Source: an uncultured Planctomycetia bacterium (lineage in GTDB: Bacteria; Planctomycetota; MHYJ01; WSZJ01). Taken from it: a DNA stretch of 64,000 nt. The DNA lies in contig CAVPNQ010000072.1 of NCBI GenBank assembly GCA_963706735.1, positions 4,932 through 68,931 of the forward strand, in the 5' to 3' direction. The translations under genes were made by a program, and so were the position numbers. The notes beneath the pieces are model-generated. The model was not told the DNA's origin, ran no database searches, and was given only the letters and a program-made list of their open reading frames with translations. Shown piece by piece: positions 31,385-55,022 of this stretch (position 1 is the first letter of the stretch; each line of letters begins with the position of its first letter).

Positions 31385-31777
31385 CTAAACCTTGGGACCC
31401 TCGGGCAGGGACGAAGCCTCCTTCTCCCTCAGTTCGGCGTCCCGGGCGACCAGCTGGACGGCCTTGACGAACAGGATCGCCGGGAGAATGGCCATGACGA
31501 GCGCGAACATGGAGTCCGCCGGGCGCCCAGGGAGCAGTCGTCCGACTGAGATCCCCCACAGCACCAGGCCCAGCAGCGGGTAGACGAATCGCTCCCGGCC
31601 TTCCACCCGCTCCATCCCGGCCGAGAGCGCGGCGTACACCAAGATGCTCGCCGCGATCGCAATCGCCACGAACCGCGTCGGATCGTATCGGGGAAGCGAA
31701 TGGTCCTGCAGCCAGAACGCTTGGGCTGCCCAGGCGATCACCGCGAGTGAAAGGACCGCGAGAGTTGTGCGCATCAC
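31385..31777 (-). CDS. Small integral membrane protein (130 aa, ~4 TM), unknown function
   Basis: Hydrophobic segments throughout. No recognisable motif. Confidence 0.45.
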   Translation of the reverse strand: MMRTTLAVLSLAVIAWAAQAFWLQDHSLPRYDPTRFVAIAIAASILVYAALSAGMERVEGRERFVYPLLGLVLWGISVGRLLPGRPADSMFALVMAILPAILFVKAVQLVARDAELREKEASSLPEGPKV

Positions 31778-31830
31778 CCTTTCATTGTAGCGCGAGACCG
31801 TCTCCGTCGGATGCGGCTACACTGCGCTGG

Positions 31831-32919
31831 ATGACTCCCGCCACTGTCACCTCCCACGACCGCGACAGCCTCCGCGACGCCTTCGTCACGATGGGCGAGA
31901 AGGCGTTCCGGGCGGACCAGGTGCTGCGCCACGTCTACAAGCGCTGCGCGACGTCGTACGACGAGATGACGGACCTCGGGGCGGCGTTGCGGGAAAAGCT
32001 GAAGGTCGAGCTGCCGATCATGGCGACGGGGGAGCCCGAGGAGAACAAGTCGAAGGACGGGACGGCGAAGCTGCTGGTGCCGTGCGCGGACGGGCAGCCG
32101 GTGGAGTGCGTGCTGATCCCGGAGCCGCCGGGGAAGTCGCCGCCGGAGCGGCGGACGGTGTGCGTCTCGACGCAGGCCGGGTGTCCCGTGGGGTGCGTCT
32201 TCTGCGCGAGCGGGCTGGCCGGGCTCGCCCGCAACCTCTCCGCAGCCGAGATCGTCGAGCAGGCGATCCGCGTCGGGCGATTCGTGCGCCGGCGCTGGGA
32301 CGACATGGACCACCCGATCTCCAACGTCGTCTTCATGGGCATGGGCGAGCCGTTCTACAACCTCGACCGCGTCATCGCCGCCATCGAGCGCCTCAACGCC
32401 GACTGGGGCATGGGCATCGGCCTCAACCGCATGACCGTCTCCACCGTCGGTGTCGAGGGGGGCGTCATGAAGCTCGCCGCCCACCCGCTCGCCCCCAATC
32501 TCGCCCTCTCCCTCCACGCCCCCAACGACGAAATCCGCGCCCGCGTCGTGCCGTTCCCCAGGGCGCTTCCCGTCTCCGAGTGCATCTCCGAGGGCGTGAA
32601 GTACCAGCAGAAGACGGGCAAGGAAGTCACCTGCGAGTACGTGATGCTGGGAGGCATCAACTCGGCGCCGGAGCACGCGCGGGAGCTGGCGAAGCGGCTT
32701 TCCGGGCGGGGGCTGAAGGTGAACCTGATTCCGTACAACGGTGTGGAAGGGCTGCCCTACGAGGCGCCGGGGGCGAAGGACGTCGCGGAGTTCTCGCGGA
32801 TTCTCGAGGCGGCGGGGATCCCGGCGCCGGTGCGGCGGGCGCGCGGCGACCGGATTGCGGCGGCGTGCGGGCAGCTGAGGCTGAGGAAGATCGAAGGGAA
32901 GAGCCCGGCGCCGGCGTAG
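31831..32919 (+). CDS. rlmN: 23S rRNA/tRNA adenine C2-methyltransferase RlmN (radical SAM)
   Basis: CPVGCVFC radical-SAM cluster motif and the RlmN-typical …GMGEP…. Length 362 aa. Confidence 0.9.
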   Translation: MTPATVTSHDRDSLRDAFVTMGEKAFRADQVLRHVYKRCATSYDEMTDLGAALREKLKVELPIMATGEPEENKSKDGTAKLLVPCADGQPVECVLIPEPPGKSPPERRTVCVSTQAGCPVGCVFCASGLAGLARNLSAAEIVEQAIRVGRFVRRRWDDMDHPISNVVFMGMGEPFYNLDRVIAAIERLNADWGMGIGLNRMTVSTVGVEGGVMKLAAHPLAPNLALSLHAPNDEIRARVVPFPRALPVSECISEGVKYQQKTGKEVTCEYVMLGGINSAPEHARELAKRLSGRGLKVNLIPYNGVEGLPYEAPGAKDVAEFSRILEAAGIPAPVRRARGDRIAAACGQLRLRKIEGKSPAPA

Positions 32920-32928: not shown

Positions 32929-33711
32929 CTACCTCGGCGGCGGCGCGCCGAAGCGGCGCGTCTTGTGCTCGCGCTTCCTTTGAGACAGGTGCTGGTCGGC
33001 GGCCATGATGAGCTCGGAGAAAGACCGGCCATTTTCGCCGCTGACGGCGATCCCGGAGCTGATGGTGTGACCGGTGCGATCCTCGACCGCCCGGCGGGCA
33101 CGCTCGCTGACGGCGTCCGCGCCTTCCCTGCCCCCGGGCGCGACGATCAGGAACTCGTCGCCGCCGTAACGGCCGAGGGTGTCCCCGCGCCGAAGCGCTT
33201 CTTTCAGGGCGCCTGCGACGTCGCGGAGGAGCTTGTCCCCGGCGAGGTGCCCCTGGGTGTCGTTGACCTCCTTGAAATTATCCATGTCCATGAGGATGAC
33301 GGACACGGGCTCGATCGACCGCTCGGAACGGGCGAGGGCGCGCTCAAGCTCCTCGAGGACAAATCGCCGGGAACTGGCGCCGGTGAGGGAGTCGGTGGTC
33401 GCCTCGATCTCGAGCCTCGAGATGAGGTCGCGGTTGTGCGTGCTGAGGTCCTCGAGGATGGTGCCGATCGCGCCGAAGACGATGGCGAACAGCGGAGGGT
33501 GGGCGAGGAAGAGGATGTGCCAGGGGTGCTCCAGGAGGATGGTGAAGAGGGAGCGGTGTTCCCAGTCGTCCAGAAGCATGTGGTCAATCGAGAGCGAGAA
33601 GATGGGAATGGGGAGGCCCCAGAAGAGCCCGAACCATGCGAAGGGGTTACGCCTGAGGTTATAGGTGTGAGGGCGCGCGAGGGCGCGAAAGAAACTGGCC
33701 AGGGTCTTCAT
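32929..33711 (-). CDS. Membrane-anchored diguanylate cyclase (GGDEF domain)
   Basis: …RYGGDEFLIV… active-site motif. Hydrophobic N-terminus. Confidence 0.8.
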   Translation of the reverse strand: MKTLASFFRALARPHTYNLRRNPFAWFGLFWGLPIPIFSLSIDHMLLDDWEHRSLFTILLEHPWHILFLAHPPLFAIVFGAIGTILEDLSTHNRDLISRLEIEATTDSLTGASSRRFVLEELERALARSERSIEPVSVILMDMDNFKEVNDTQGHLAGDKLLRDVAGALKEALRRGDTLGRYGGDEFLIVAPGGREGADAVSERARRAVEDRTGHTISSGIAVSGENGRSFSELIMAADQHLSQRKREHKTRRFGAPPPR

Positions 33712-33863
33712 CGCACCGAAAAAGGCTGCAAAGGGGAGACCGCAGGAGGAAGTCCCTGCGGGATCGGATCGGAAGAAGCCGCGCGAACATGTGAAATTCC
33801 CCACTTGTGCGTAAAATCACGATTCGAAAGTGTCCCATCCCCCAGATTTCCGCGTGTTTGCGG

Positions 33864-33880
33864 CGGCACTTCCCTTGCAT
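33864..33880 (+). promoter_or_regulatory. Sigma54 (-24/-12) promoter
   Basis: cGGCACttcccTTGCAt shows GG and GC at the canonical 12-nt spacing. The -12 TTGCA ends 31 nt upstream of the regulator start codon. Confidence 0.6.
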
Positions 33881-33910
33881 ATCAGTTCCCACCCTAATCG
33901 CGGTGAATCC

Positions 33911-35308
33911 ATGAACATCCTTGTCGTCGACGACGAAAAACTCATCCGCTGGTCGCTCAAGGAGCGCCTCACGCGCGAGGGCCACTCCGTCACGGAAGCC
34001 GAGGACGGCAAGTCCGCCCTCGAGGCCTTCCACCGCGAGACGCCCGAACTCGTGCTGCTCGACATGAAACTGCCCGACACCGACGGGCTCAGCATCCTCC
34101 GCGCGATCCAGAAGGAATCCCAGGGCGGCCCCGAAATCCCGGTCATCGTGATCACGGCCTATTCGACCGTCGATACCGCCGTCGAGGCGATGAAACTCGG
34201 CGCCTTCGACTACGTCGCCAAGCCGTTCAACATGGACGAACTCGCCATCACCGTCCGCCGCGCCCTCGAGACCAGCTCCCTCAAGCGCGACGTCCGCGCC
34301 CACGTCTCCGAGCGCCGCTCTTCGTTCGGCGTCCACAACCTCGTCGGCAAATCGAAGTCGATGCGCGACGTCATCGAGCTCGTCCGCCGCGTCTCCCAGA
34401 GCGGCGCCTCCACCGTCCTCGTCCGTGGCGAAAGCGGCACCGGCAAGGACGTCATCGCCAAGGCCATCCACTACGAGTCCAACCGCAGCGACAAGCCCTT
34501 CATGAACATCACCTGCACCGCCCTCCAGGACACGCTGCTCGAGAGCGAATTGTTCGGGCACGAAAAGGGAAGCTTCACGGACGCAAAGATGCAGAAGAAG
34601 GGCCTCTTCGAGCTCGCCAACGGCGGCACCCTCTTCCTCGACGAAATCGGCGACATGTCGCCCACGCTCCAGTCCAAGGTGCTGCGCGCCCTGGAGGAAA
34701 AGGCGTTCCGGCGGATCGGCGGCACGGTGGACATCAAGGTCGATGTGCGCGTGATCGCGGCGACCAACAAGGACCTGGAGAAGGCGATCGCCGAAGGCCG
34801 CTTCCGCGAGGACCTGTACTACCGGCTCAACATCATCACGATCCTGGTGCCGCCGCTGCGCGCCCGCAAGGAGGACGTTCCGCTGCTGGTGCAGCATTTC
34901 CTGAAGCGCTTCGCGGAGGAATTCCGCAAGGAAGTGAAGGACCTGACGAAGGAAGCGTACGACAAGCTGTCGGGGTACGACTGGCCCGGGAACGTGCGCG
35001 AGCTGAAGAACGCGATCGAGCGCGCGGTGCTGCTGGGGCAGGGGCCGACGATGGGGGCGGACGACCTGGCGCTGGGGAGGCCGGGGCCGGCATCGACGGG
35101 GGAGGAGGGCGCGAGGCTCCTGAAGCTGCCCTCGAAGGGGATCGTGCTGGAGGACCTGGAGAAGGACCTGGTGGTGCAGGCGCTGGAGCGGACGGCGGGG
35201 AACCAGACGCGGGCCGCGGACCTGCTGGGGATCACGCGGGACCAGATCCGGTACCGGATGGAGAAGTTCGGGTTGATGAAGGGCGAAGAGGCGCACCATA
35301 ACAGCTAG
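33911..35308 (+). CDS. Sigma54-dependent response regulator (NtrC family)
   Basis: REC domain, AAA+ ([14 protein letters not shown] sigma54-contact variant of GAFTGA) and C-terminal HTH. Preceded by a sigma54 promoter. Confidence 0.9.
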
Positions 35309-35342
35309 CTTCCGTGCCGGCCGGCGGCGAGCATGGTGATTC

Positions 35343-36191
35343 ATGGAACAGCCGACCGGGGTTGACGCGTACGCTCCCGCCGAGATGGCGGCGAGGGTCG
35401 AAGACACGGGGGTGAAGAAGGCCGCCCTCGGGATGGGCTCGATGCTGGCGCTGGCGGTGCTCGCCGGGGCGTTCATCGGCCTGGGCGCGGCGTTCTCGAC
35501 GGTGGCCGCGACGGACACGCGGATGGGATACGGGCCGACGAAGCTGCTCTCGGGGCTCGCGTTCTCGCTCGGGCTGATCCTCGTCGTCGTCGCAGGCGCG
35601 GAGCTCTTCACCGGAAACGTCCTGGTCATCATGGCCTGGGCGAGCCGCCGCGTGACGACGGCGCGGCTGCTGCGCAACTGGGTGTGCGTCTACGCGGGGA
35701 ACTTCGCGGGCGCCGCCGCGACGGCAGCCGCCTTCTACGCCTCTCATCGCTGGGCCGATGCCGGCGCCCAGCCCGGCGCGACGGCTCTTCGCATCGCCCT
35801 CGCCAAGTGCACCCTGCCGTTCGGGACGGCGTTCGTGCTGGGTGCGCTGTGCAACGCGCTCGTGTGCCTCGCCGTCTGGCTGTGTTTCAGCGCCCGCAGC
35901 ACGACGGACAAGATCCTGTCGATCCTGTTTCCCATCACGGCGTTCGTGGCCCTCGGCCTCGAGCACAGCGTCGCCAACATGTACTTCATCCCGCTGGGAA
36001 TGATGCTCCGGTCGGAGCCCGCGGTGCTCGCCGCGGGCGGGTGGACGCCCGACGCCCTCGCGCCGGTCGGCTGGGCCGGGCTCGCCGCCAACCTCGTCCC
36101 CGTCACCCTCGGCAACATCGCCGGCGGCGGACTCATGGTGGCCGCCATCTACTGGTACGTCTACCTGCGCGAGGGCCGTCGCAGCCCCTGA
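35343..36191 (+). CDS. Formate/nitrite transporter family channel (FocA/NirC-like)
   Basis: FNT signatures (…LSGLAFSLGLILVVVAGAELFTGN…, …LCNALVCLAVW…). Length 282 aa. Lies 34 nt downstream of the regulator. Confidence 0.8.
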   Translation: MEQPTGVDAYAPAEMAARVEDTGVKKAALGMGSMLALAVLAGAFIGLGAAFSTVAATDTRMGYGPTKLLSGLAFSLGLILVVVAGAELFTGNVLVIMAWASRRVTTARLLRNWVCVYAGNFAGAAATAAAFYASHRWADAGAQPGATALRIALAKCTLPFGTAFVLGALCNALVCLAVWLCFSARSTTDKILSILFPITAFVALGLEHSVANMYFIPLGMMLRSEPAVLAAGGWTPDALAPVGWAGLAANLVPVTLGNIAGGGLMVAAIYWYVYLREGRRSP

Positions 36192-36315
36192 GAGCGCGAG
36201 AAGCACTCGCCCTGCGGCACGCGCCACCAGCCCGTCCGGCGCGCGAGGTGGTGTGGAGGAAAAATTGTGGTTTTCGAGGCGCGCCGGACGTGCCGGCGCC
36301 GGTCGAACCGCGCGC

Positions 36316-36343
36316 CCCGACGTCGAGCCGTTACGACGTCGGG
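36316..36343 (+). promoter_or_regulatory. Perfect 10-bp inverted repeat (cccgacgtcg-N8-cgacgtcggg) in the intergenic region upstream of the globin-coupled kinase
   Basis: Read directly. Lies 125 nt after the transporter stop. Followed by two GAATTTT(T)CA-type direct repeats. Confidence 0.35.
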
Positions 36344-36462
36344 CGTGCGCGGTGAGACCGGTGACGGCGCTCGAATTTTTCACGCGCTCTGAGCGGCGCC
36401 GCGGGAATTTTCAATGCCCGCAGGCTGTGCATTCGTCCCCCGCCGGATAGAATCCGCCCGCC

Positions 36463-37674
36463 ATGCTCTCCCTGACCGATCGCGATATCCAGTCCCGCAA
36501 AGCCTTCGTGCAGCTCACCGCCGAAGACGAACGGCTGCTCCGCGAAGTCCACTCGCTGCTCTCACAGCACGCCGACACGATCATCAACCGGTTCTACGAG
36601 TTCCTCCTGTCCCACGATCGGACGCGCAGGATGCTCGAGGCCCCCGGCCAGGTAGAGCGGCTCAAGGCCCTTCAGCGCACCTACTTCAACCGCCTGACTG
36701 CGGGGAACTACGACGCCGAGTATTTCCGGGAGAGGGTCCGGGTCGGTCTCACCCACGAAAGGGTCGGGCTGCCCCCGGAGATGTACCTGGGCGCCTATCA
36801 CCGTTACTTCCAGATCGCTTCCGATGTGCTTCGCGGCGCCTTCCCGCCCGGCGACGCGCGCTACCACCGCACCGTGGCCGCCCTAGGCAAGATCATCACG
36901 CTCGACATGAGCCTCGCGATCGATTCCTACATCGACCAGGCCCACTCCACCCTCCACAACCGCAACGCCGAGCTCGTCCGCCTCCAGGGCGCCAAGCGCA
37001 TCCTGAGCGACATGATCATCCACGACCTCCAGAACCCCCTCGCCGGCATCCGCGCGTTCCTCGAGCTCCTCTCCACCCGCGAGCAGGGACTGAGCCCCAA
37101 CGAGGACGAAGCGCTCACCGAGGCCCTCCGCCGCTGCGACGATCTCGGCCAGATGATCATGAACGTCCTCCAGGTCAGCCGCGCCGAGGCGGGAAGCCTC
37201 GAGGTCAATGTCGAGAATTTCGACGTGGCGGAACTCGCGCGGCGAAGCGTCGCAGCGTTCGACCTGCATGCAGGACAGGAAGGGCGCTCAATTGAGCTGG
37301 AAGCTCCAGGGTCGCTGACCCTCCGGTCGGACCAGTCGCTTCTCAAGAGAGTGTTTTACAACCTCATCCGCAACGCGGTCAGGCATACCCCGCGCGGGAC
37401 GAAGATCCTGGTGCGCGTCACGGAGGCGGCGGAAGGGAAGGCGGAGATCTCCGTGGTGGACGACGGGCCGGGAATCCCGAAGAACGTGCAGCATCTGTTG
37501 TTCGAGCGGTACGGCGGGCAGGCCCTGCGCGAAGCGGGATTGCGGGTGGACACCGGGCTCGGGCTGTCGTTCTGCCGCTCCGCCGTGGAGGCCATGGGCG
37601 GCACGATTGCCGTCGAAAGCGACGGCCGCTGCGGGACCGCGTTCCGGCTCGTGGTCGGGCAACCGACGGTCTAG
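36463..37674 (+). CDS. Globin-coupled sensor histidine kinase (protoglobin sensor domain + HisKA + HATPase)
   Basis: N-terminal globin-coupled-sensor pattern (…INRFYEFLLSH…LKALQRTYFNRL…YFRERVRVGLTHERVGL…YLGAYHRY…). H-box IIHDLQNPL. G-boxes in the C-terminus. Confidence 0.85.
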   Translation: MLSLTDRDIQSRKAFVQLTAEDERLLREVHSLLSQHADTIINRFYEFLLSHDRTRRMLEAPGQVERLKALQRTYFNRLTAGNYDAEYFRERVRVGLTHERVGLPPEMYLGAYHRYFQIASDVLRGAFPPGDARYHRTVAALGKIITLDMSLAIDSYIDQAHSTLHNRNAELVRLQGAKRILSDMIIHDLQNPLAGIRAFLELLSTREQGLSPNEDEALTEALRRCDDLGQMIMNVLQVSRAEAGSLEVNVENFDVAELARRSVAAFDLHAGQEGRSIELEAPGSLTLRSDQSLLKRVFYNLIRNAVRHTPRGTKILVRVTEAAEGKAEISVVDDGPGIPKNVQHLLFERYGGQALREAGLRVDTGLGLSFCRSAVEAMGGTIAVESDGRCGTAFRLVVGQPTV

Positions 37675-37678
37675 ATCT

Positions 37679-38530
37679 CTACTTCGACCGCACCACGAGC
37701 ATCGGCACCGTCGCCGAACGCAGCACCTTCTCCGTCACGCTTCCCATCACCCACCGCGACGGCCCGCTGCGACCGTGCGTGCTCATCGCGAGCAGGTCCA
37801 CTCCGTGACGCTTCGTCGCGTCCAGGATCTCCGAGGCGGGATCCCCGAGCCGGATGACCGGGTCCACGGGGATGCCGGCCTGCGCGAGGTCCTTCACCGC
37901 GATCCGCACCAGCGGCTCGCCTTCGCCCGCCTTGCCCTCCGAGGTGGGCTCGACCACCCCGAGCACCAGCACGCTCGCCCCGACTGCCTTCGCGAACGTC
38001 TTCACGTACGGAAGCACCGCCAGCGACTTCTCGCTGCCGTCGATCGGGACGAGGATCTTCTTGAAGGGGATTTCCTGGACCGGCGTCCGATCGGCGCCGA
38101 CGGCGCTGTCCTTGTAGGAGCGCACCATGAGAACGGGAACCTCGCTGGCCCGCATGACTTTCTCCGCGACGCTGCCGAACACGAACCGCGAGAAACCGCT
38201 GCGGCCGTGAGTCGCCATGGCGATCATGGTCGCTTTTTCCTCCTTTGCCGCGTCGAGGATCGCGGTCGCCTCGCCGCCGACCCGGACGACACCGCGGGAC
38301 TTGACTCCCTCCTTCGCGAGCTGGCGCTCGAGCGCCGCGATGTAGCGTTCGGCTTCCGCCTTGAGGTCAGACAGCAGAGGCGCGAATTCGACCCCGGGCT
38401 GAACGGGGACGGGGACCGCTTCAAAGAGGATCACGCTGGAGTCATTCAGGCGGAGCAGCCGGCAGACCTGCCCGAGGATGGCCTCTGCGATTTCCGAACC
38501 GTCGAGCGGGACGAGGATGCGTTCGAGCAT
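37679..38530 (-). CDS. Tandem universal stress protein (2x UspA domain)
   Basis: Two …ILVPLDGSE…ATHGRSG…VLRSATVPMLVV… units. Confidence 0.85.
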   Translation of the reverse strand: MLERILVPLDGSEIAEAILGQVCRLLRLNDSSVILFEAVPVPVQPGVEFAPLLSDLKAEAERYIAALERQLAKEGVKSRGVVRVGGEATAILDAAKEEKATMIAMATHGRSGFSRFVFGSVAEKVMRASEVPVLMVRSYKDSAVGADRTPVQEIPFKKILVPIDGSEKSLAVLPYVKTFAKAVGASVLVLGVVEPTSEGKAGEGEPLVRIAVKDLAQAGIPVDPVIRLGDPASEILDATKRHGVDLLAMSTHGRSGPSRWVMGSVTEKVLRSATVPMLVVRSK

Positions 38531-38727
38531 GGCTCACCTCTTGAATTGGAAGGCCGATCAGGACTCCGGTCGACGCACCTGCGCCCGGAATATACCCGCA
38601 CAAGGTGTGCCGTGGAGTCCTGCATGGAAACGCGGCCAGCGAATCACCAACAGGGGAAAATTACGCTCTTCCCGGTAGAATCTACCTCCTGATCGGGCCG
38701 GATGCGGGGATTTCCCACTCTTCAGGC

Positions 38728-38743
38728 GGCCCTGCGTTTGCGC
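38728..38743 (+). promoter_or_regulatory. Sigma54-type promoter upstream of the USP gene
   Basis: cGGCCCtgcgtTTGCg shows GG and GC at the 12-nt spacing. The -12 GC lies ~46 nt upstream of the ATG. Confidence 0.45.
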
Positions 38744-38788
38744 TTCCGTTCATCCCCCCCTTACTCTCACTCAGCCGCGGAGGGCCCC

Positions 38789-39694
38789 ATGTACCGGACC
38801 ATTCTCGTTCCCATCGACGGCTCCACCCTGTCCGAGCACGCGATTCCCTTCGCCATCGAAATCGCCCGCCGAGCCAAGGGACGCGTCAGGCTCCTGCGGG
38901 CCCTTCCAGAGTCGCTCATCGTCACGGACATCCCCGTCTCGGTCCAGGCCTCCGCCCGCAAGCTCGCCCACGCCGAGGTCGACCGGCTCGTGAAGACCTA
39001 CAACTCGGCCGAGGTTCCCGTCGAGGCCGAAGTCCGTATCGGATTCCCCCTCGAGGAAATCAATCGCGCCGCCACCAAGGCCGACCTCGTCGTCATGACC
39101 ACCCACGGCCGCGGTGGAGTCCAGAGATGGGTCATGGGAAGCGTGGCCGACAAAGTCATCCGCCTCGCCGCGACCCCGGTTCTCGTCATTCACCCGCCGC
39201 AGAAGCGGACCCGCGCGATGGCCGAGGCAGGCGCGCTCCGCATGTTCCGCGACGCCATGGTTTCCCTCGACGGTTCTCCCCTCTCCGCCCAGGCCCTCCG
39301 CGAACTCCGCCAGTTCGCCGAAGGCGGCACCCGCATCCACCTCCTTCGGGTCGTCGCCAGCGACGCTTCCCCCGCCTCGGTTGACCTCGCCGCCAACCAG
39401 CTCAAGGACGCCGCCAGTGATCTTGTCGCCCGCGGCGTGAACGTGGTGCAGGCGGTGGCGAAGAGCGACAGCCCGGCGGAGGCGATCGTGGAGTACGCGC
39501 TGCAGAAGGGCTGCGGCGTGATCGTGATGACGACGCGCGGCGCCGGGGGGATCGAGCGGTGGATGCTGGGCGGGATCACTGACAAGGTGGTCCGGCATGG
39601 TCCGACGCCGGTCCTCGTCATCCGCGCTTCGAGGGCACTCTGGAAGGGCGGCAAGCGGCCGCTCGGCGGCAGGCGGAATATCCGGGTGATCTGA
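38789..39694 (+). CDS. Tandem universal stress protein
   Basis: GGAGGG ribosome-binding site. Two UspA units (…TTHGRGG… and …TTRGAGG…). Confidence 0.85.
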   Translation: MYRTILVPIDGSTLSEHAIPFAIEIARRAKGRVRLLRALPESLIVTDIPVSVQASARKLAHAEVDRLVKTYNSAEVPVEAEVRIGFPLEEINRAATKADLVVMTTHGRGGVQRWVMGSVADKVIRLAATPVLVIHPPQKRTRAMAEAGALRMFRDAMVSLDGSPLSAQALRELRQFAEGGTRIHLLRVVASDASPASVDLAANQLKDAASDLVARGVNVVQAVAKSDSPAEAIVEYALQKGCGVIVMTTRGAGGIERWMLGGITDKVVRHGPTPVLVIRASRALWKGGKRPLGGRRNIRVI

Positions 39695-39723
39695 GCGGGG
39701 ACGGCCCACGAGAAGAGGTTGCC

Positions 39724-40560
39724 ATGCTGAAGCACATCCTGGTCCCGCTCGATGCCTCGCCGGCGGCGGAGTCGGTGATCGACCGGCTGCTGCCGCTTCT
39801 GGCTCGCGCCGGAACGGACGTCGTGCTGCTTCACGTCGCCGAACCGCCGCTGGCCGCTTCGCTCGAGCCCGGCCGTGCGGACGATGCGCGGGCCGAGGCA
39901 CAGGGATATGTGAGGGACCTGGCGAAGCGTGTTTCGGGGAAGGGAGTGCGTTGTCGCGGGATCGTGAAGCCGGCTCCGGCGGCGGAGGCGATTGTGGCGG
40001 AGGCGGCGGCGAGGCCCAACGGGATGATTGCGATGGCGACGCACGGGCGGAAGGGTCTGGCGCGGCTGGCGTACGGGAGCATTGCCGAGAGTGTGCTTCG
40101 GGCGAGTCCGGTGCCGGTGCTGCTGGTGCGGACGGCGGGGGAGCCGAAGAAGCCCGAGCCGCTCGTGATCCGGAGGATCGTCGTTCCGGTGGATGGAAGC
40201 ACGCACGCGCTGGGGATCGCGCCGCACGTCACGGAGCTTGTCACGGCGTTTCACGCGCAGGTCACGCTCGTGCACGTCCTGCCGCCCCGGCCGGCGCTGG
40301 GGGAAACGGTGGCCCATGCAGAACGAGTCATCGAGACGGCCAAGGCTGTCTTTGCGGATGCCGGAGTGACGTGCGACAGCCTGATCAGCACGGGGGATGC
40401 GGCGGAGGAGATTCTTGAAGCGGCGGCAGGGAAGAAGGCGGACCTGATCGCCTGTTCCACGCATGGACGGACCGGGATCGTGAGGGCCGTGATGGGGAGC
40501 ATCGCGGAGAATGTGTTGCGTTCGGGCAACCTGCCGATGCTGGTGGTCCGGAGCGCCTGA
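39724..40560 (+). CDS. Tandem universal stress protein
   Basis: Two UspA units (…ATHGRKG… and …STHGRTG…). Confidence 0.85.
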   Translation: MLKHILVPLDASPAAESVIDRLLPLLARAGTDVVLLHVAEPPLAASLEPGRADDARAEAQGYVRDLAKRVSGKGVRCRGIVKPAPAAEAIVAEAAARPNGMIAMATHGRKGLARLAYGSIAESVLRASPVPVLLVRTAGEPKKPEPLVIRRIVVPVDGSTHALGIAPHVTELVTAFHAQVTLVHVLPPRPALGETVAHAERVIETAKAVFADAGVTCDSLISTGDAAEEILEAAAGKKADLIACSTHGRTGIVRAVMGSIAENVLRSGNLPMLVVRSA

Positions 40561-40701
40561 GACCGCGAGCAAAATCCTCCCTGCGGCGCACGGCACGGGT
40601 CCGACCGGCGCGCGACGAGGGATTGGGCGGTGCCGAGGCTTGAGGCGCGCGCCGACCGGACCCGCGCCGCGCGTCCTCGGTCGGGTTTTGCTCGCGGTCT
40701 C
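40559..40701. repeat. Inverted repeat with 16-19-bp arms (gagaccgcgagcaaaa / ttttgctcgcggtctc) enclosing ~110 nt of GC-rich near-palindromic sequence
   Basis: Read directly. The left arm begins inside the TGA of the USP gene. Confidence 0.55.
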
Positions 40702-40785
40702 AAGGTTCCCGGTGAGCGGCTTGCGGCTTCCGGGGAGAGGTTCAGGCCTGCGCGAGCAATCTGAGCGCGTTGTAAGCGATCGAGG

Positions 40786-41250: not shown

Positions 41251-41805
41251 ATGAAGCTGATTGCGTTCTGCGGACCGTCGGATTCCGGCAAGACCTGGAT
41301 GATCGAGCGCCTGGTGCGGCTCTGGACCTCGCGTGGTCTCAAGGTCGGGGTCGTCAAGCACTGCTCCAAGGGCTACCAGCTGGACCGCGAGGGGAAAGAC
41401 TCGAGCCGCTTCTGGGAAGGAGGGGCCGCGGCCGTCGCGGTCGTCGGGCCCGGCGAGTGGGCGGTCCGCCGTCGCGAACCCGAGGCCGACCCGGTTCGCA
41501 TTGCCGAAGAGGCGTTTCCCGGAGTCGACGTGGCCATCGTGGAAGGATTCCGCGACGTCGCGATCCCGCGCGTCCGGGTCTTCGGGGCGAGCGAGCTGCC
41601 CTCATGCACGGACGCGGACCACGACATCATCGCCGCAGTGTCCCGCACCCCGGGTACGGCCCAGAACATTCCCATCTTCGCGCTGACCGACGCCGACGGG
41701 CTCTCGGACTTTCTCGCACACAGGCTCGGGCTGAATCTCGCCCTCTCCACGGATCCGGAGGCCGCCGTGCTGAGACACGAAAGAGCGGGCGCTCGTCCGG
41801 CTTAG
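41251..41805 (+). CDS. mobB: Molybdopterin-guanine dinucleotide biosynthesis adapter protein MobB
   Basis: P-loop GPSDSGKT, …VVKHC… and size 184 aa are typical for MobB. Confidence 0.8.
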   Translation: MKLIAFCGPSDSGKTWMIERLVRLWTSRGLKVGVVKHCSKGYQLDREGKDSSRFWEGGAAAVAVVGPGEWAVRRREPEADPVRIAEEAFPGVDVAIVEGFRDVAIPRVRVFGASELPSCTDADHDIIAAVSRTPGTAQNIPIFALTDADGLSDFLAHRLGLNLALSTDPEAAVLRHERAGARPA

Positions 41806-43436
41806 CGCAGTCCGCCGATGCCCGTCCGCGCCGCCGCGTTCTCGAGCGGAAGCGAGATCTTCACCTCGGTCCCCTTGCCCAGCTCGCTGTCGATCTCCAC
41901 CCGCCCGCCGTGCGCTTCGATCATCCTCTTCGAAATCGCCAGCCCGAGCCCCGTGCCGCGGGTCTTGGTCGTGAAGAACGGCGAGAAGAGTCGCGGAATG
42001 TGATCCGGGGCGATTCCGCTTCCGGTATCGCGGACCCGGATGACGGCCATTCCCGGGGTCTCCTTGATGTCCACGCGGATCTCGCCGCCGTGCGGCATCG
42101 CATCGACGGCATTCTGGAGGATGTTGAAGAAGACCTCCTGGACGAGCCTGGGGTCGGCCGAAAGCATGAGTGAAGCGGGTGTGTCGCAGCGAAGAGCAAT
42201 CGTGGACATCCGCTCCTGCTGCTTCAGGATCCGCGTGACCCTGCCGAGGAGCTCGACCAGGTCGGTCGTCTGCGGCTCCGGCGTCCACGGGCGTGCGAAG
42301 ACCAGCAGGTCCCGCACCGTCTCGTCGAGCCGCTGCACCTGCGCCAGGATTTCCGACACGATTTCGCGCCGCGGGTCCGTCGAGGGAATCGCGTCCGCGA
42401 TCACCTGGATCGCCCCGCTGATCCCCGCCAGCGGGTTCTTGATCTCGTGCGCCACCGTCGCCGCCAGCTCGCCCACCGCGGCCAGGCTCTGCGACCGCAC
42501 CAGGTCCGTTTGCAGCCGCTTCACCTTCGTCATGTCCCGCAGGATCGCGCTTCGGCCCACGATCTTTCCCGACTTGTCCCGGATGGCGGTGCTTGTGATG
42601 CTCATCGCCAGCCGGCGTCCGTCGCGGGAGACGCGGACCGTTTCGTAACCCTCGAGAAACCCCTCGCGTTCGACTTCCGTGCGGATGCGGCGCAACTCGC
42701 CCGCGTCGCGGAGCTCCTCCGGGATCAGCGCTTCGATCGGCTGGCCGATGATCTCGGTCGCCGGCCATCCGAACATCCGCTCGGCGCCGCGATTCCAGCT
42801 CCGGATCAGGTCGGACTGGTCCACCGTCACGATCGCGTCCGCCGAGTTCTCGAGGATGTTCTCCAGGTGCTCCTTGCTCTTGCGGAGCTCTTCGACGAGA
42901 AGCGACCGTTCGAGGGCGACAGAGATGTGTCCGGCGACGTTGCGTGTGAAAGTGGCGTGATCGGCGGTGTAGGCGTCGCGGTGGCGGGACGAGATGAAGA
43001 GCACGCCGAAGGGGTTGCCGCGGGCGATGAGGGGGAGGGAGAGGGAGGAGAGCATGCCTTCCCGGACGATGAGACGCGTGGCCTCGGAAGTGGGGTGGGC
43101 GCGGACGTAGGCGTCGAGGTCGGGGATGATGCGGGGTTCGCCGGTGCGAAGGAGCGGCTCGAGGCTGGAACCCCGGAGGCGCGCGCTGTACCCCTCGTGG
43201 AGGAGGATCGGGCCGTCGCTGCGGCAGGCGTGGATGGTGAGCGAGTCGCGCGCGGGATCGTAGACGGACACGGCCAGCCGGTTGCACGGCAGGTGGCCGC
43301 GCATCCGCGCATAGATGGAGTCGAGGATGTCCTGGAAGCCGCGGCCGGCGTTCAGGTCCTGGACGATTTCGTTGAGGATGTCGCTGCTCACGGCTCCCTG
43401 GTCAGCTATGGAGGCACTTCCGAGGAAGCAAGCCAC
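41802..43436 (-). CDS. GAF-PAS sensor histidine kinase
   Basis: N-terminal GAF-like region. PAS (…IVTVDQSDLIRSWNRGAERMFGW…). H-box VAHEIKNPL. HATPase_c N/G1/G2 boxes. Confidence 0.85.
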   Translation of the reverse strand: MACFLGSASIADQGAVSSDILNEIVQDLNAGRGFQDILDSIYARMRGHLPCNRLAVSVYDPARDSLTIHACRSDGPILLHEGYSARLRGSSLEPLLRTGEPRIIPDLDAYVRAHPTSEATRLIVREGMLSSLSLPLIARGNPFGVLFISSRHRDAYTADHATFTRNVAGHISVALERSLLVEELRKSKEHLENILENSADAIVTVDQSDLIRSWNRGAERMFGWPATEIIGQPIEALIPEELRDAGELRRIRTEVEREGFLEGYETVRVSRDGRRLAMSITSTAIRDKSGKIVGRSAILRDMTKVKRLQTDLVRSQSLAAVGELAATVAHEIKNPLAGISGAIQVIADAIPSTDPRREIVSEILAQVQRLDETVRDLLVFARPWTPEPQTTDLVELLGRVTRILKQQERMSTIALRCDTPASLMLSADPRLVQEVFFNILQNAVDAMPHGGEIRVDIKETPGMAVIRVRDTGSGIAPDHIPRLFSPFFTTKTRGTGLGLAISKRMIEAHGGRVEIDSELGKGTEVKISLPLENAAARTGIGGLR

Positions 43437-43682
43437 GGGCCGTAGCGCAAATCAGCGGGATGCGGCGTTCGTCCAGGTGCTCTGGGTCAATTCCCAACGA
43501 TTTCTGTCTAATCTCGCAGTGACCCGTGTGTCCGGGTTCCGCATTCCCCGGACTAAAGCGCATCCGGTGCGGGTTTCCGGGCATCTGTGGTAAAGATACG
43601 GTGGCAGGGGAATTGGAAGCAGCCGCAGTCAGGCGCGGTGAGGCGCGAGGATCAGTTGCCGCGCCGGGCGACGTGACAGGGC

Positions 43683-43724
43683 AAAAAAAAAGCGGAGTCG
43701 GCGCCCGCCACAGACGCCGACTCC
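43683..43724 (-). terminator. Rho-independent terminator of the oxidoreductase operon
   Basis: On the minus strand: stem ggagtcggcg, 11-nt loop, stem cgccgactcc, then T9. Begins 16 nt after the chaperone stop (43740). Confidence 0.8.
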
Positions 43725-43739
43725 TGAAGCGACCGTGGT

Positions 43740-44504
43740 CTACACACCGCAGTCGCTGCTTTCGTTTTCTTCGGGACCGTCTTCGGGCTCGGCAGCCGGT
43801 TCGGGCGGAATCGCAATCGGTTCCGCGCTGACTTCCCCCGGCGTCACTTCCAGACGGGAAGCATCAGATTGCAAAACAGAGGCCAGAAGCGCGCCCAAGG
43901 CGCGATGCAGGGTGTTAGGGGCCTTTTTCGCGAGAATTTCCCCAAACACTGGGCCCCATCGCCCAATGTGGTCCTTCAAGAACGCCCGCGCGGCCTCCAG
44001 CGTCCGTTCCGCGCCCTCCACTTCTCCACGCTCCAGCGCCACGAGCTGCTTCACCGCGAGAAAGTGCACGAATTCCAGCTCAAGCCAGGCATGGTCAGCC
44101 CGTTCTCCGGTTCCTCCGCGAACCTGCAGCCCGAACGCCCTGTAAAACGCAGTAACGTCCGCCAGGTCCTGGGTCTCCTGGAACGGATGGGCGCTGCCGT
44201 ATCGCGTCTCGTGCGGCGGGAACGTCTCGGAAATCGTGTGGCCGTACGTCGCGAGGTGCATCGACTCCATGCCCCCGTCCGTCAGCCCCTGCAGCACCGC
44301 CTTCACCTCCGCCAGTCTTCCTTTCACGCAGTCGCCAGCCTTCCCCCAGAGTTCCGCCGTGTCGGAATCAGGAAGCTCATTCCGAAGCGCTTCCGCCGTG
44401 CCAGCGCTCGGGTACGCGAAGGCGCGAGCAAGGAACCGGTAATACCCGGCGCGAACGAACGCAAGTTCCGAGTCCATCGTCAGTTCCGGAAGAGTGGCTG
44501 GCAT
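43740..44504 (-). CDS. TorD/NarJ-family redox-enzyme maturation chaperone with extended acidic C-terminus
   Basis: Start at MPATLPEL. …YRFLARAFAYP…LEFVHFLAV… matches the TorD/NarJ delta-subunit pattern. Lies 10 nt downstream of the beta subunit. Confidence 0.75.
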   Translation of the reverse strand: MPATLPELTMDSELAFVRAGYYRFLARAFAYPSAGTAEALRNELPDSDTAELWGKAGDCVKGRLAEVKAVLQGLTDGGMESMHLATYGHTISETFPPHETRYGSAHPFQETQDLADVTAFYRAFGLQVRGGTGERADHAWLELEFVHFLAVKQLVALERGEVEGAERTLEAARAFLKDHIGRWGPVFGEILAKKAPNTLHRALGALLASVLQSDASRLEVTPGEVSAEPIAIPPEPAAEPEDGPEENESSDCGV

Positions 44505-44514: not shown

Positions 44515-45789
44515 CTAGATGGAGTTGGCGTGCTTGTCGGGCCGGATGTGGAATGGCTCCTCAACTGCCGTCCGGAACAGCTCCTGCCGGTCCTTCCCGA
44601 AGGCGATAATCGTGTCGTTGAAGAGCTCAAATTTCTTCCCGCGGATGGTCGTTTCGAAGCGCTTCTCTCCCGGTTCGATCTCGTAGCTGTAGATGATCCG
44701 CTGGTCTTTGCGGAAGAGCTGGAGGACAGCGAGGAGTTCGCGGTTGGGGATGGTGTAGTTCTCGATCGCGTCGTCGACGCCCGGCCCGAACATCTGCTTC
44801 AGGTACTCGCGAGGAACCCACCGCGGCGGGATGTAGAAACCGTTGGGCTCCGTCCCGAACTGCGGGTAGAGCGGCAGGGCGACTTTTGCCACCTTGACGA
44901 GGTGGTAGAGAGGGCTCTTCTTGTTTTCCGTCCACGACCCGTCCTTCTCGACCTTCACGAGTCCCTGCAGGCGGATCTGGCCGACGCAGCTCGTCATGCA
45001 CCGCGTTTCCATCGGCACGCCGCCGCACTGGGGGTCCTTGCCCTCGATGCGCGGGAAGCAGGCCACGCACTTTTCCGAAGTCCGCGTCGAAGGCCGGTAC
45101 ATCGCCTTCTTGTAAGGGCACGCTTCGACGCACCGGCGGTACCCGCGGCAGCGTTCCTGGTCGATGAGCACGATCCCGTCTTCGGGACGCTTGTAGATCG
45201 CCTTGCGCGGACATGCCGCGAGGCAGCCGGGATAGGTGCAGTGGTTGCAGATGCGCTGGAGGTAGAAGAACCAGGTCTTGTGTTCGGGGAGCGAGGCGCC
45301 GTCCCTGGAGAGGCCGAACGGACCGCCCTCGTAGGGGGTCGCGTTGTCTTCGAAGATGTTCGGGGCGGTCCACTCGGACTCGGTGGGGAGGTACCCGAGG
45401 ACGCGCTGCTGCGAATCGGGATTCAGCGCCTTCTTTGCCGCTTCGAAGATCGTCATGCCCTTGTACTGGCCGTAGACGGCCCTGTCCGACTTCTTGCCCG
45501 CCCAAGCCATTTCCTCGCCGGCGCGGGCATGAGCCTGATCGAGGAGCTGGAGGATTTTCGAATCCCAGTTCTGCGGGTAGCCGCCGTAGGGTTTTGTCTC
45601 GACGTTGTTCCACCACATGAGTTCCTGGCCCTTGGAAAACGTCCAGGTGGACTTGCAGCTCATGGTGCACGTCTGGCACGCGATGCAGCGGTTCGTGTTG
45701 AACACGAACGCAAACTGGTGATCGGGGTGGTGCTCCTCGTACGGGTATTCCATCTGCCGCCCGAGTTGCCAGTTATAGACCTGGGACAT
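44515..45789 (-). CDS. Fe-S beta subunit of a type II DMSO-reductase-family enzyme (NarH/NxrB-like, 424 aa)
   Basis: MSQVYNWQLGRQMEYPYEE…FVFNTNRCIACQTCTMSCKSTW…WWNNVETKPYGGYP is the NarH/NxrB N-terminal signature. Multiple Cys ferredoxin motifs. The 424-aa length matches Nitrospira/anammox-type NxrB rather than the 512-aa NarH. Confidence 0.9.
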   Translation of the reverse strand: MSQVYNWQLGRQMEYPYEEHHPDHQFAFVFNTNRCIACQTCTMSCKSTWTFSKGQELMWWNNVETKPYGGYPQNWDSKILQLLDQAHARAGEEMAWAGKKSDRAVYGQYKGMTIFEAAKKALNPDSQQRVLGYLPTESEWTAPNIFEDNATPYEGGPFGLSRDGASLPEHKTWFFYLQRICNHCTYPGCLAACPRKAIYKRPEDGIVLIDQERCRGYRRCVEACPYKKAMYRPSTRTSEKCVACFPRIEGKDPQCGGVPMETRCMTSCVGQIRLQGLVKVEKDGSWTENKKSPLYHLVKVAKVALPLYPQFGTEPNGFYIPPRWVPREYLKQMFGPGVDDAIENYTIPNRELLAVLQLFRKDQRIIYSYEIEPGEKRFETTIRGKKFELFNDTIIAFGKDRQELFRTAVEEPFHIRPDKHANSI

Positions 45790-45802
45790 GCGTGAAGCCT
45801 CC

Positions 45803-46075
45803 TTAGTTGCCCGCCTGCGGAGACGGGCTCCACTCGCGGAGCACGTCGTCGATCACCCGTTCCACGAACTGTTGACCGTGCTGGGCCCAGACCCTGTGGG
45901 TGCCGGCGTAGAACGGGTCCTTGAAGAGCCGCACGAGGCGCTCCCTGTCGAACCCGTTCAGCAGGAACTCCTCGACGACCGCGCGGGTCATGTCTTCGTC
46001 CGCCTGCGGCCCGGCCGGGATCGCCATACCGACGAACTCCAGCGGGTCGTCCTGTTCGCTTTCTTTTTCCGGCAT
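45803..46075 (-). CDS. Small acidic hypothetical protein (90 aa) encoded between the alpha and beta subunits
   Basis: ORF with normal composition (MPEKESEQDDPLEFVGMAIPAG…FLLNGFDRERLVRLFKDPFY…). Tight 14-nt and 28-nt spacing to its neighbours. Confidence 0.5.
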   Translation of the reverse strand: MPEKESEQDDPLEFVGMAIPAGPQADEDMTRAVVEEFLLNGFDRERLVRLFKDPFYAGTHRVWAQHGQQFVERVIDDVLREWSPSPQAGN

Positions 46076-46103
46076 CGTTTCCTCCTGGTCCCGGGACGGT
46101 CGT

Positions 46104-49100: not shown

Positions 49101-49544
49101 GGGGAAGCCGTCGTCGGCCCACTGCTTCCACATTTTGCGGATCATGGGGTAGCGGAGGCGGTACGGGCCGTACATGCGGCGCTGCATCGTGAACCCGTTG
49201 GAGCAGCCACGCGGGTTCCAGTTGACCGTGGCCTTGTTGCCGTAGAGGTCGCCGACGCGCCCGCTGTCGTAGTTCTGCTCGCTGCGGAGCACGACGCCAT
49301 TGCGGACGTACGCTCTCATGCGGCACGAGTGCGTGCAGTTCGGGGAGCACACCCAGGCGAAGCTCGAGTCGTACCGATACTGTTCGCGGTACACCTCTTC
49401 CCAGTCGCGCGCCGGGTAGGCCGCCAGCGGGTCGACGTCGGGAAACGGTTCGAAAGCCCCGAGCCTCAGGCCGCCCGAGGCCAGCCACGCGGCGCTTCCC
49501 GCAATTCCTGCGGACTTCAGGAAGTCGCGACGGTTAATGGCCAT
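46104..49544 (-). CDS. Molybdopterin (bis-MGD) catalytic alpha subunit of a periplasmic type II DMSO-reductase-family enzyme (NxrA/NarG-like, 1146 aa from the Tat-signal Met)
   Basis: Twin-arginine signal MAINRRDFLKSAGIAGSAAWLASG. NarG/NxrA-like N-terminus …WEEVYREQYRYDSSFAWVCSPNCTHSCRMRAYVRNGVV… with a C-x3-C-x3-C FS0-type motif. Size matches Nitrospira/Kuenenia NxrA (~1146 aa). Confidence 0.9.
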   Translation of the reverse strand: MAINRRDFLKSAGIAGSAAWLASGGLRLGAFEPFPDVDPLAAYPARDWEEVYREQYRYDSSFAWVCSPNCTHSCRMRAYVRNGVVLRSEQNYDSGRVGDLYGNKATVNWNPRGCSNGFTMQRRMYGPYRLRYPMIRKMWKQWADDGFPELTPDNHKKYKFDSRGTDELVKIAWDDAFKYLAKGVVHIMKKYSGEQGRKRLVDEGYPEEMLLYHENSGARVCKVRGGMGLLGVMGKYGMYRFGQGLALADAKIRGVGEHDAKGSRIWSNYTWHGDQAPGHPFVHGLQASDCDLNDFRYSKLHIQMGKNLIENKRADNHFFTECMERGAKIVVITPEYSPPASKADYWIPIRPNSDTALLLGITKLMMDENKYDADFVKRFTDFPLLVREDNLKRLQAKDVIKGYAAPDLSAGASFQIHGMTKEQRDRIGDFMVWDTKTNGPKVVTRDAVGGLFDSLGLDAALKGTFKVKTVDGKEIVVRPLFDLYKNIHLKDYDLDTVHEITRAPKELIRRLTDDIATIKPVAIHQGEGINHWFHATEANRASYLPLMLTGNIGLPGAGSHTWAGNYKAALFQGSTWTGPGFKGWVAEDPWHLNLDENADGKDIHAHAFTQDEEPAYWNYDDKPLLVETPGKGHKCFTGKSHMPTPTKFLWFTNVNLFNNAKWAYQMLMKTNTKIEMICSTDIEMTSSVEYSDLVFAANCWMEFQQYEVTGSCSNPFLQIWGRGIKPVYDTMDDPVILANASKAVGELIGEPRLTDLWKFTHEGKTEVYIQRLLDASTTTRGYKVKDINDGKYGEPGAALFLFRTYPRVPFYEQIKDNLPFYTPTGRLQSYNDEDEVIEYGENFIVHREGPEATPYLPNVIVSSNPWVRPESYGIPEDAMGVEERQVRNIKKPWSEVKNTKNPLWEAGFKFYCITPKSRHSTHSQWQVTDWQFIWNNQFGDPYRRDKRQAGVGEHQIHINPAAAKDMGIADGDYVYVDANPADRPYIGWKPDDPHYKVGRLMLRAKYNAAYPYSAVMMKHAPFIATEKSVKAHESREDGRAQSEGTGYQSSFRYGSQQSVTRGWLMPMHQLDSLFHKTKARMGFLFGGEADNHAVNTTPKETLVKITKAENGGLNGVGVWAPAASGFAPGGENDFMKKYMQGKVTRG

Positions 49545-50517: not shown

Positions 50518-50529
50518 GTTTGATCTCCC

Positions 50530-52185: not shown

Positions 52186-52246
52186 GCAGTGCCTCCTCGG
52201 GTAGTCCCTCGCGCCGCCGGGCGCGAACGGGACTCGAGCGCTGTGC

Positions 52247-55009: not shown

Positions 55010-55022
55010 GCAGCGAGGATTC

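Follow-up and report, generated by a model that had tools for sequence, protein, structure and literature searches.

The stretch of DNA analyzed here, a 64-kb window with 67% G+C from an uncultured Planctomycetota bacterium, contains an island of genes built around a globin-coupled histidine kinase (GcHK) and an NtrC-type sigma-54 activator (enhancer-binding protein, EBP). We favor, with reasonable though not strong confidence, the view that this island is a heme-based gas-sensing two-component system running a small sigma-54 regulon. This view is carried by protein domains, key residues, sigma-54 promoters, an upstream motif and gene neighborhoods, all of them apparent from the sequence and its conservation. 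The initial annotation of this DNA had proposed a sigma-54-wired island around a kinase of the AfGcHK type, with tandem universal stress protein (USP) genes as targets. The analysis supports this proposal, the closest characterized system being the Nmp pathway of Myxococcus xanthus.

Open reading frames (ORFs) of the window were filtered by third-position G+C (GC3) and then scanned against Pfam; the gene absences mentioned below refer to GC3-supported ORFs within the 64 kb, and a missing gene could be present elsewhere in the genome. Eighty loci encoding relatives of the kinase were fetched and the window proteins were mapped onto them. The nearest homologues are found in Planctomycetota metagenome-assembled genomes (MAGs), and seven Planctomycetota loci (L002-L007 and L020) share the island, making eight genomes with the window.

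The globin-coupled kinase, the activator and their gene neighbors

The kinase gene (36463-37674, +) encodes a protoglobin domain (PF11563, 4e-38, residues 6-159) followed by a HisKA (PF00512) and a HATPase_c (PF02518) domain, with the phospho-acceptor His187 in the H-box IIHDLQNP. Its sensor matches the globin of AfGcHK from Anaeromyxobacter sp. Fw109-5 (PDB 5ohe; E 2.7e-15, residues 12-157; see also 5ohf and 6otd) as well as the Geobacter globin-coupled sensor (2w31) and HemAT (1or4). Tyr45 aligns with the distal Tyr45 of AfGcHK and His98 with its proximal His99. Indeed, the two kinases agree in domain order and almost position for position in their key residues (Tyr45, Leu67/68, His98/99 and His187/183, island/AfGcHK), so that the AfGcHK-type architecture initially suggested is borne out. 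Tyr45, Leu67, His98 and His187 are invariant among 20 homologues at 47-78% identity; the proximal histidine, on which the initial reading of the sensor hinged, is hence present and conserved, and the kinase would bind heme through it, as judged by homology. An AlphaFold2 (AF2) model of the kinase (pLDDT 85) is all-helical over residues 1-160 and continues into a long dimerization and histidine phosphotransfer helix and a Bergerat-fold domain. When the full-length model was submitted to Foldseek, only matches to the kinase core were returned (HK853, ZraS, CusS) and none to the globin domain.

A -10-like box, TAGAAT (36448-36453, +), lies 9 nt upstream of the kinase ATG. At the same place in L002, L003, L006 and L007 a TAGAAT or TATAAT box is found, 9-12 nt before the start across the five genomes, and the kinase gene may thus have its own sigma-70 promoter and a near-leaderless mRNA. 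The spacer between the upstream channel gene and the kinase gene folds no better than shuffled sequences (z = 0.29), and a simple scan for intrinsic terminators gave nothing convincing inside the island.

The activator (33911-35308, +) combines a receiver (PF00072), a sigma-54 activation domain (PF00158, 7.2e-70), PF25601 and a Fis-type helix-turn-helix of the HTH_8 family (PF02954). Its true start is ATG 33911 within the ORF 33830-35308, and the exact 465-aa product exists as a called protein. The receiver aspartate is Asp51, in LVLLDM. In the sigma-54 contact loop, GSFTDA replaces GAFTGA: Phe and Thr are retained, and Asp takes the place of Gly at the fifth residue. The whole Planctomycetota clade has the form G[AS]FTDA; the EBPs linked to distant globin-coupled kinases have GAFTGA or GSFTGA. 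The protein falls below every named NCBIfam equivalog cut-off (best AtoC, 493 bits vs 714) and reaches 298 bits against the NorR model, whose cut-off is 476.

Thirty-four nucleotides past the EBP stop begins the gene of an FNT-family anion channel (35343-36191, +; Form_Nir_trans, PF01226, 3.7e-74), which is probably co-transcribed with the activator gene; the same gene order is kept in L002, L003, L006 and L020. The channel belongs to the family and keeps the central His (EHSVAN), and its scores lie below the cut-offs of the FocA (241 bits vs 290) and NirC (85 bits vs 293) subfamily models.

Three tandem USPs follow on the map, each with two PF00582 stretches in which, as read by eye, the ATP-loop x-2x-G-9x-G-S is kept with its first Gly replaced. 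USP1 (37679-38530, -; Usp x2, 2.3e-58) had been described as following the kinase. In an operon sense it does not: its gene is encoded on the opposite strand and converges on the kinase gene, leaving a gap of 4 nt, an arrangement retained in six of the seven close relatives and also in Binatia-type loci. USP2 (38789-39694, +) starts at 38789 and not at 38702, a 301-aa gene being called on an independent contig, and USP3 (39724-40560, +), likewise supported by synteny, starts 29 nt past USP2; the two probably share one transcript. On the other side of the activator, a membrane GGDEF protein, a diguanylate cyclase (GGDEF, 1.2e-37), is encoded divergently (32929-33711, -) in synteny with L002, L003, L007 and L020. 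Its likely start is ATG 33711, the mechanical ORF extending to 33804, and the translation has two to three hydrophobic N-terminal helices and an intact GGDEF motif and no REC domain. Apart from the orientation of USP1, the gene list originally given (NtrC regulator, FNT channel, globin kinase, three double-Usp genes, divergent GGDEF gene) agrees with Pfam throughout.

Sigma-54 promoters and a shared upstream motif

Two sigma-54 promoters had been reported in the island. The one before the activator gene is real, and the island in fact has four conserved ones, arranged in two back-to-back pairs, P_ggdef/P_ntrC 121 bp apart and P_usp1/P_usp2 114 bp apart. P_ggdef (CGGTCTCCCCTTTGCA, 33727-33742, -), about 15 nt upstream of the GGDEF start codon, reads CGGTCTCCCCTTTGCA in L002 too, CGGTCTCAGGTTTGCA in L003, TGGTCCCCGGTTTGCG in L007 and CGGTCCC-N5-TTTGCG in L020. 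P_ntrC (CGGCACTTCCCTTGCA, 33864-33879, +) lies 32 nt upstream of ATG 33911, and its GGCAC-N5-TTGC is kept in all six orthologous regions that have the activator gene. P_usp1 (CGGCACACCTTGTGCG, 38597-38612, -), about 65 nt upstream of the USP1 start, keeps the form CGGCAC[GA]C-N3-GTGCG in eight of eight genomes, as does P_usp2 (CGGCCCTGCGTTTGCG, 38727-38742, +; 46 nt upstream of ATG 38789) the form GG[CT]CC-N5-TTTGC. A fifth site, P_gafpas (CGGCCCGTGGCTTGCT, 43427-43442, -), precedes a GAF-PAS histidine kinase gene (41802-43391, -; likely start GTG 43391; Pfam, and synteny with L002-L007) and is conserved in L002-L006.

In a single sequence such matches occur at the rate expected by chance (3 found vs 3.2 expected; at 9 bits or more, 29 vs 27). 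Single-sequence statistics, giving no enrichment over shuffles, were hence dropped as support for P_ntrC in favor of conservation: P_ntrC is credible only through its conservation in every orthologous locus, where the flanks have diverged. Promoter conservation extends over five to eight Planctomycetota genomes. Moreover, a promoter of this type also stands before genes inserted in relatives: two small membrane-protein genes (L004 and L005) and a CBS-pair gene (L020).

These insertions lie in the gap between USP1 and USP2, which is a hot spot for additional sigma-54-driven cargo among relatives (L004 12116-13140; L005 3330-5051; L020 16081-16713). In L004 and L005 it holds two small membrane-protein genes without a Pfam match, joined in L005 by a 279-aa ORF on the other strand, and in L020 the CBS-pair gene. 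The latter and the L005 membrane-protein block stand behind P_usp1-like promoters, a copy of which was seen by eye in L004.

Regarding the site at which an activator might bind, expectation-maximization on 16 promoter-upstream regions yielded a motif of 16 nt, roughly (G)CGTGATTTTCCGCA, in which GC-rich arms enclose an A/T core; it is present in all 16 regions. Its log-likelihood is 109, as compared with 56 +/- 3 for dinucleotide-type shuffles and 56.7 for 16 other intergenic regions of the window. The best window sites stand midway between the divergent promoters: two adjacent ones, TGTGAAATTCCCCACT and CGTGATTTTACGCACA (33790-33821; 14.7 and 22.2 bits), between P_ggdef and P_ntrC, and CGTAATTTTCCCCTGT (38650-38665; 22.6 bits) between P_usp1 and P_usp2, where weaker sites are also found at about 38680-38692 and at 38703-38721. 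In 196 kb, 26 matches reach at least 13 bits; for 21 of these, mostly training sites, a sigma-54 site follows within 250 nt downstream. Measured from the -24 GG, motif centers fall at 46-52, 67-73 and 88-93 nt, in steps of about two helical turns, which fits helical phasing. Outside the training set, one match of the window (52590-52605) and one before P_gafpas in L003 (18359-18374) have a sigma-54 promoter 64-72 nt downstream, and a match in L086 (1326-1341) sits between another divergent pair; upstream of the window's own P_gafpas the motif is weak (6.4 bits). The AT-core motif is likely the activator binding site.

A DUF4783 gene (9462-9878) has, immediately upstream, a second NtrC-type EBP gene (10057-11445, -). 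The top sigma-54 match of the window, AGGCACTCCATTTGCA at 9932-9947, belongs to this DUF4783 gene, and the two genes are probably a small regulon of their own next to the genes of the Pst phosphate transporter.

Proposed wiring of the island and probable nature of its signal

That no cognate regulator gene lies next to the kinase, as had been remarked, is literally correct, since the FNT gene intervenes. The view of the kinase as an orphan is not borne out. Among 46 loci with a full-length GcHK, in which full-length EBPs within 1.3 kb were counted, 28 have such an EBP: 22 of the 27 distant ones (kinases 30-36% identical, from Binatia, Myxococcales, 'Deltaproteobacteria' and Thermodesulfobacteriota MAGs) and six of the 19 close ones. 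At distant loci the EBP is usually encoded 32-140 bp upstream on the same strand, or divergently. Because EBPs adjoin GcHK genes in this way, the activator encoded two genes upstream is the likely partner of the kinase. Orthologues of this EBP in L009 (64% identity) and L022 (54%) directly abut the kinase gene, so that the FNT gene looks inserted into a regulator-kinase pair. Binatia-type loci have the layout of the window, the kinase gene being followed by a convergent USP gene and a divergent CBS gene, each with a strong sigma-54 promoter. An apparent EBP-GcHK fusion (P0094) was not used, as it consists of an N-terminally cut EBP fragment in frame on a 3-kb contig and may be an assembly or deletion artefact.

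The characterized relatives of the two proteins give this pairing a functional frame. The activity of AfGcHK depends on its heme state, Fe(III), Fe(II)-O2 and Fe(II)-CO giving an active and five-coordinate Fe(II) an inactive kinase, and the roles of His99 and Tyr45 have been described (PMC8697598); its cognate regulator is a double-receiver protein without output domain, whereas the neighbor of the island kinase is a sigma-54 activator. NmpU, the homologue of AfGcHK in M. xanthus, keeps the hybrid kinase NmpS off by phosphorylating both it and NmpT; under hypoxia, NmpS phosphorylates the NtrC-like NmpR, and this regulator switches on the sigma-54 promoters in front of genes for CBS-domain proteins, USPs, cbb3 oxidase and HemN/hemerythrin (PMC6211767; PMC11841059). 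The island resembles this pathway in having an AfGcHK-homologous protoglobin kinase upstream of an NtrC-like sigma-54 activator, in the autoregulation of the activator, as predicted for the island, in targets with paired upstream sites and a sigma-54 promoter (PMC11841059; PMC6211767), and in the overlap of its targets with the experimentally defined NmpR regulon of USP, CBS-domain proteins and a terminal oxidase. It differs in its host, a planctomycete instead of a myxobacterium, in its motif (an AT-core of about 14-16 nt vs the NmpR site GCGCA-N5-TGCGC), in its additional outputs (the FNT channel, the membrane diguanylate cyclase and three tandem USPs) and, above all, in that neither NmpS, the REC-HisKA inverter, nor NmpT, the double receiver, is encoded in the window. 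The island would thus act in the manner of Nmp without belonging to its architecture. As both are absent and kinase and activator are neighbors, phosphotransfer is probably direct and the oxygen sign probably inverted.

The nature and sign of the signal, the phosphotransfer partner and the binding of the activator to the motif are proposed on this basis, and the following sequence of events can be envisaged. The cytoplasmic kinase would bind heme through His98, and ligand binding or heme oxidation, with Tyr45 touching the ligand as in AfGcHK, would alter autophosphorylation of His187. The phosphoryl group would pass to Asp51 of the EBP encoded two genes upstream, as the conserved gene neighborhood suggests. 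The activated EBP is predicted to assemble at the AT-core sites midway between the divergent promoter pairs and to open these promoters. The outputs would be its own EBP-FNT operon (positive autoregulation), the membrane diguanylate cyclase, USP1 and USP2-USP3, and the GAF-PAS kinase, a lipoprotein gene before the oxidase genes and two small structured RNAs could belong to the same or an overlapping regulon. O2 or the heme redox state is the most likely signal. If transfer is direct and the sensor behaves like AfGcHK, whose O2-bound form is active, the regulon would be on with oxygen, opposite in sign to Nmp, because no NmpS-type inverter is present.

Several observations weigh against this scheme. 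L004 and L005 have no EBP within 10 kb although kinase, USPs and sigma-54 promoters are all retained there, and five other loci with close homologues (L008, L010, L011, L014 and L018) lack an adjacent EBP. The EBPs adjacent to distant kinases are 40-44% identical to the island EBP vs 38-41% to the unrelated second EBP, and their helix-turn-helix regions differ from that of the island EBP; with so small a bit-score margin over an unrelated EBP, orthology across phyla is not demonstrable. The GSFTDA loop in place of GAFTGA also counts on this side, although it can be argued to be functional because it co-occurs with conserved -24/-12 promoters. As the motif was derived from related genomes, shared ancestry gives part of its score, and the presence of rpoN in this genome is presumed. 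Finally, NmpU of M. xanthus does not phosphorylate NmpR, the second kinase NmpS being responsible (PMC6211767), and the island has in its GAF-PAS kinase a second kinase that could fill the role of NmpS.

Among the alternatives, the one that fares best retains the wiring and changes the signal, which would be NO, nitrosative stress derived from nitrite, or the heme redox state instead of O2. It gains from the enzyme of the nitrite oxidoreductase (NXR) type, the MobB gene and the FNT channel beside which the island lies, from the ability of globin sensors to bind several diatomic gases and from the activation of AfGcHK by CO and by heme oxidation as well. The distal pocket residues Tyr45 and Leu67 are nevertheless those serving O2 recognition in AfGcHK, the kinase-EBP-USP module is also found in genomes or loci without NXR, and the characterized homologous pathway responds to hypoxia. 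We regard this alternative as possible and somewhat unlikely.

A little less probable still, and in our judgement unlikely, is an indirect wiring after the manner of Nmp, in which the GAF-PAS kinase phosphorylates the EBP and the globin kinase signals to an unlinked receiver or only modulates. Besides the division of labor between NmpS and NmpU in M. xanthus, it would account for the conservation of the GAF-PAS kinase in the island with its own sigma-54 promoter, for the kinases of L004 and L005 without a nearby EBP and for the stand-alone receiver genes found 2-3 kb from the GcHK in L011 and L014. Yet Pfam detects neither an NmpS-like REC-HisKA hybrid nor an NmpT-like double receiver among all supported ORFs of the window, 22 of 27 distant loci have the EBP gene next to the GcHK gene with no other kinase in between, and the GAF-PAS kinase gene is 6 kb away from the EBP gene, being in relatives the divergent partner of the oxidase cluster.

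It is improbable that the clustering is largely incidental, another sigma-54 activator serving the USP, GGDEF and FNT promoters and the kinase being unrelated: the genome does have other EBPs (e.g., 10057-11445) and many sigma-54 promoters of the window lack the AT-core motif (none at P_54060, before a lipoprotein gene, and weak at P_gafpas), but P_ntrC has its motif and architecture in common with the USP promoters, the convergent GcHK/USP pair recurs across phyla alongside an adjacent EBP and the second EBP has its own adjoining sigma-54 target.

Beyond Nmp and AfGcHK, the direct kinase-to-activator wiring that we favor can be set beside other gas-responsive systems. In DosS/DosT-DosR of Mycobacterium tuberculosis, heme-based kinases respond to gas or redox state by inducing a regulon in which tandem USPs abound. 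The resemblance to dormancy regulons of this type noted earlier is reasonable as a functional analogy of a heme kinase and a USP regulon and does not extend to membership: the sensor there is a GAF-heme domain and here a globin, the regulator there is of the NarL/LuxR type acting on sigma-70 promoters and here a sigma-54 AAA+ activator, and the signaling parts are not homologous beyond the kinase core. FixL/FixJ likewise places respiratory genes under a heme kinase, with a PAS-heme sensor and a FixJ-type regulator, and NorR is a sigma-54 activator responding to a diatomic gas that senses NO itself by a non-heme iron GAF domain, with no kinase.

Surroundings of the island and significance

The molybdoenzyme encoded next to the island is of the genuine NXR type, its alpha subunit scoring 1774 bits against Kuenenia NxrA (7b04_B). 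The region 44515-59374 carries this Kuenenia/Nitrospira-type NXR, found here in a Planctomycetota MAG of 67% G+C, with NxrA, NxrB-like, EB_dh/cytochrome c and NarJ-like genes; a gene for a NarJ-like chaperone (43740-44504, -) follows the GAF-PAS kinase gene on the map. Past the operon come two CarboxypepD_reg, 'plastocyanin'-like lipoprotein genes and the aa3-type heme-copper oxidase that adjoins NXR, and sigma-54-type promoters precede both lipoprotein genes: P_52670 (52669-52684, +) before gene 52734, conserved in L082, L084 and L086, and the match P_54060 (54059-54074, +) before gene 54206, which has a homologous site in L006 only and no AT-core motif. Lipoprotein gene 52734 is only a possible member of the regulon, the motif being strong only in the window and L086 and the promoter being conserved in L082, L084 and L086.

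The initial annotation went further and suggested gas-responsive control of the nitrite/nitrate enzyme, in its widest form a DosR-like dormancy switch directly controlling the NXR operon. Linkage of the island to NXR is conserved in L002, L004 and L005, MobB is encoded inside the island and weak motif-like sites (52298-52338) precede nxrC. However, direct gas-responsive control of NXR is unsupported, there being no sigma-54 promoter before the operon and only weak motif matches (about 10 bits) before nxrC. A different conserved palindrome, ACTTAATGnCATTAAC, sits before the operon instead, no DosR-type regulator is present, and the oxidase cluster adjoins the island in L087 and in a JGI contig, both without NXR; this wider reading is therefore very doubtful. 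In relatives without NXR, the GAF-PAS kinase gene is directly divergent from the lipoprotein-oxidase operon. Because the island abuts the oxidase cluster in these relatives, the NXR operon looks inserted into an older, oxygen-related neighborhood. The first gene of the NXR operon (start 52272, -) has a palindrome, ACTTAATGTCATTAAC (52332-52347), some 60 nt before it. L082 and L084 share this palindrome and L086 has a slightly different form of it; it probably serves as operator for some regulator of the NXR operon.

Two candidate sigma-54-dependent small RNAs were observed around the NXR operon. The first (52419-52560, -) is situated between the lipoprotein/oxidase genes and this operon. Downstream of a promoter-like GGGAACTGGATTTGCG (52545-52560), some 115 nt fold into three hairpins and end in a U-run. 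The window, L082, L084 and L086 share an identical core of 27 nt, even though neighboring proteins are only 54% (L084) and 58% (L086) identical, and at the place of the promoter-like site the relatives have sigma-54 sites of the GGGCCC or CGGTCC type. With P_52670, this promoter forms a third divergent sigma-54 pair, the motif site 52590-52605 lying in between. The second candidate, a structured RNA (about 43690-43885, -), has TGGCCTCTGTTTTGCA (43870-43885) ahead of a hairpin and a strong terminator (43694-43724). Both stems show compensatory changes across the window, L002, L003, L006 and L087. Both in the window and in L002, the low-complexity end of the NarJ-like ORF overlaps this candidate, which is also kept in L003, L006 and L087, where no NXR genes were detected nearby. 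A motif match (18.7 bits) at 43870-43946 was dismissed, as it lies inside the NarJ-like ORF; the sigma-54-like site in the same interval, initially regarded as intergenic, lies in this ORF as well and was re-read as the candidate small-RNA promoter. No Rfam match was obtained at gathering or relaxed thresholds, and a metagenome scan for the small-RNA core found nothing. An indirect control of NXR through these two RNAs is a speculative idea.

Regarding the remaining features, RlmN (31747-32919, +; Pfam) precedes the GGDEF gene on the map and MobB, a molybdopterin-guanine dinucleotide synthesis accessory protein (41251-41805), follows USP3. MobB is conserved in the island of L002-L007, including relatives without adjoining NXR, and its stop overlaps in the window the end of the convergent GAF-PAS kinase gene. 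The USP3-MobB spacer measures 690 bp in the window vs about 137 bp in L002. Directly after USP3, a near-perfect 150-nt hairpin (40556-40705; -109 kcal/mol, z = -7.65 vs shuffles), part of which recurs near MobB in L003, may be a terminator or an element resembling repetitive extragenic palindromes (REP) or miniature inverted-repeat transposable elements (MITE). A repeated element suspected after the FNT and USP3 genes was not confirmed by blastn.

Taken as a whole, the island is a simpler and probably directly wired relative of a known pathway, with a globin kinase, a sigma-54 activator and a USP-centered regulon, and it is not a new type of system. Biochemical (AfGcHK) and genetic (Nmp) work on globin-coupled kinases has so far been confined to a single branched pathway of four proteins. 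As the comparison of loci indicates, a simple pair of kinase and activator, with USP and CBS genes as its closest targets, is more common in nature, which offers a simpler model with a testable prediction of sign inversion. Moreover, a promoter and operator map is now available for an uncultured NXR-bearing planctomycete, comprising seven sigma-54 candidates (five conserved ones, in the island or before the GAF-PAS kinase gene, the other two close to the oxidase genes), a single motif and a pair of candidate small RNAs around the NXR and oxidase genes, and it could guide metatranscriptome analysis of responses to oxic/anoxic shifts. More tentatively, and as a prospect that we hold possible and not probable, a direct switch from globin kinase to sigma-54 activator, dispensing with the Nmp inverter, would be widespread and so far undescribed in uncultured Planctomycetota, Binatia, Myxococcota and their relatives. 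In the present lineage it would be on with oxygen and drive tandem USPs, a cyclic di-GMP cyclase, an anion channel and possibly two sigma-54-dependent small RNAs flanking the NXR operon. Oxygen sensing would then be tied post-transcriptionally to nitrite/nitrate respiration.

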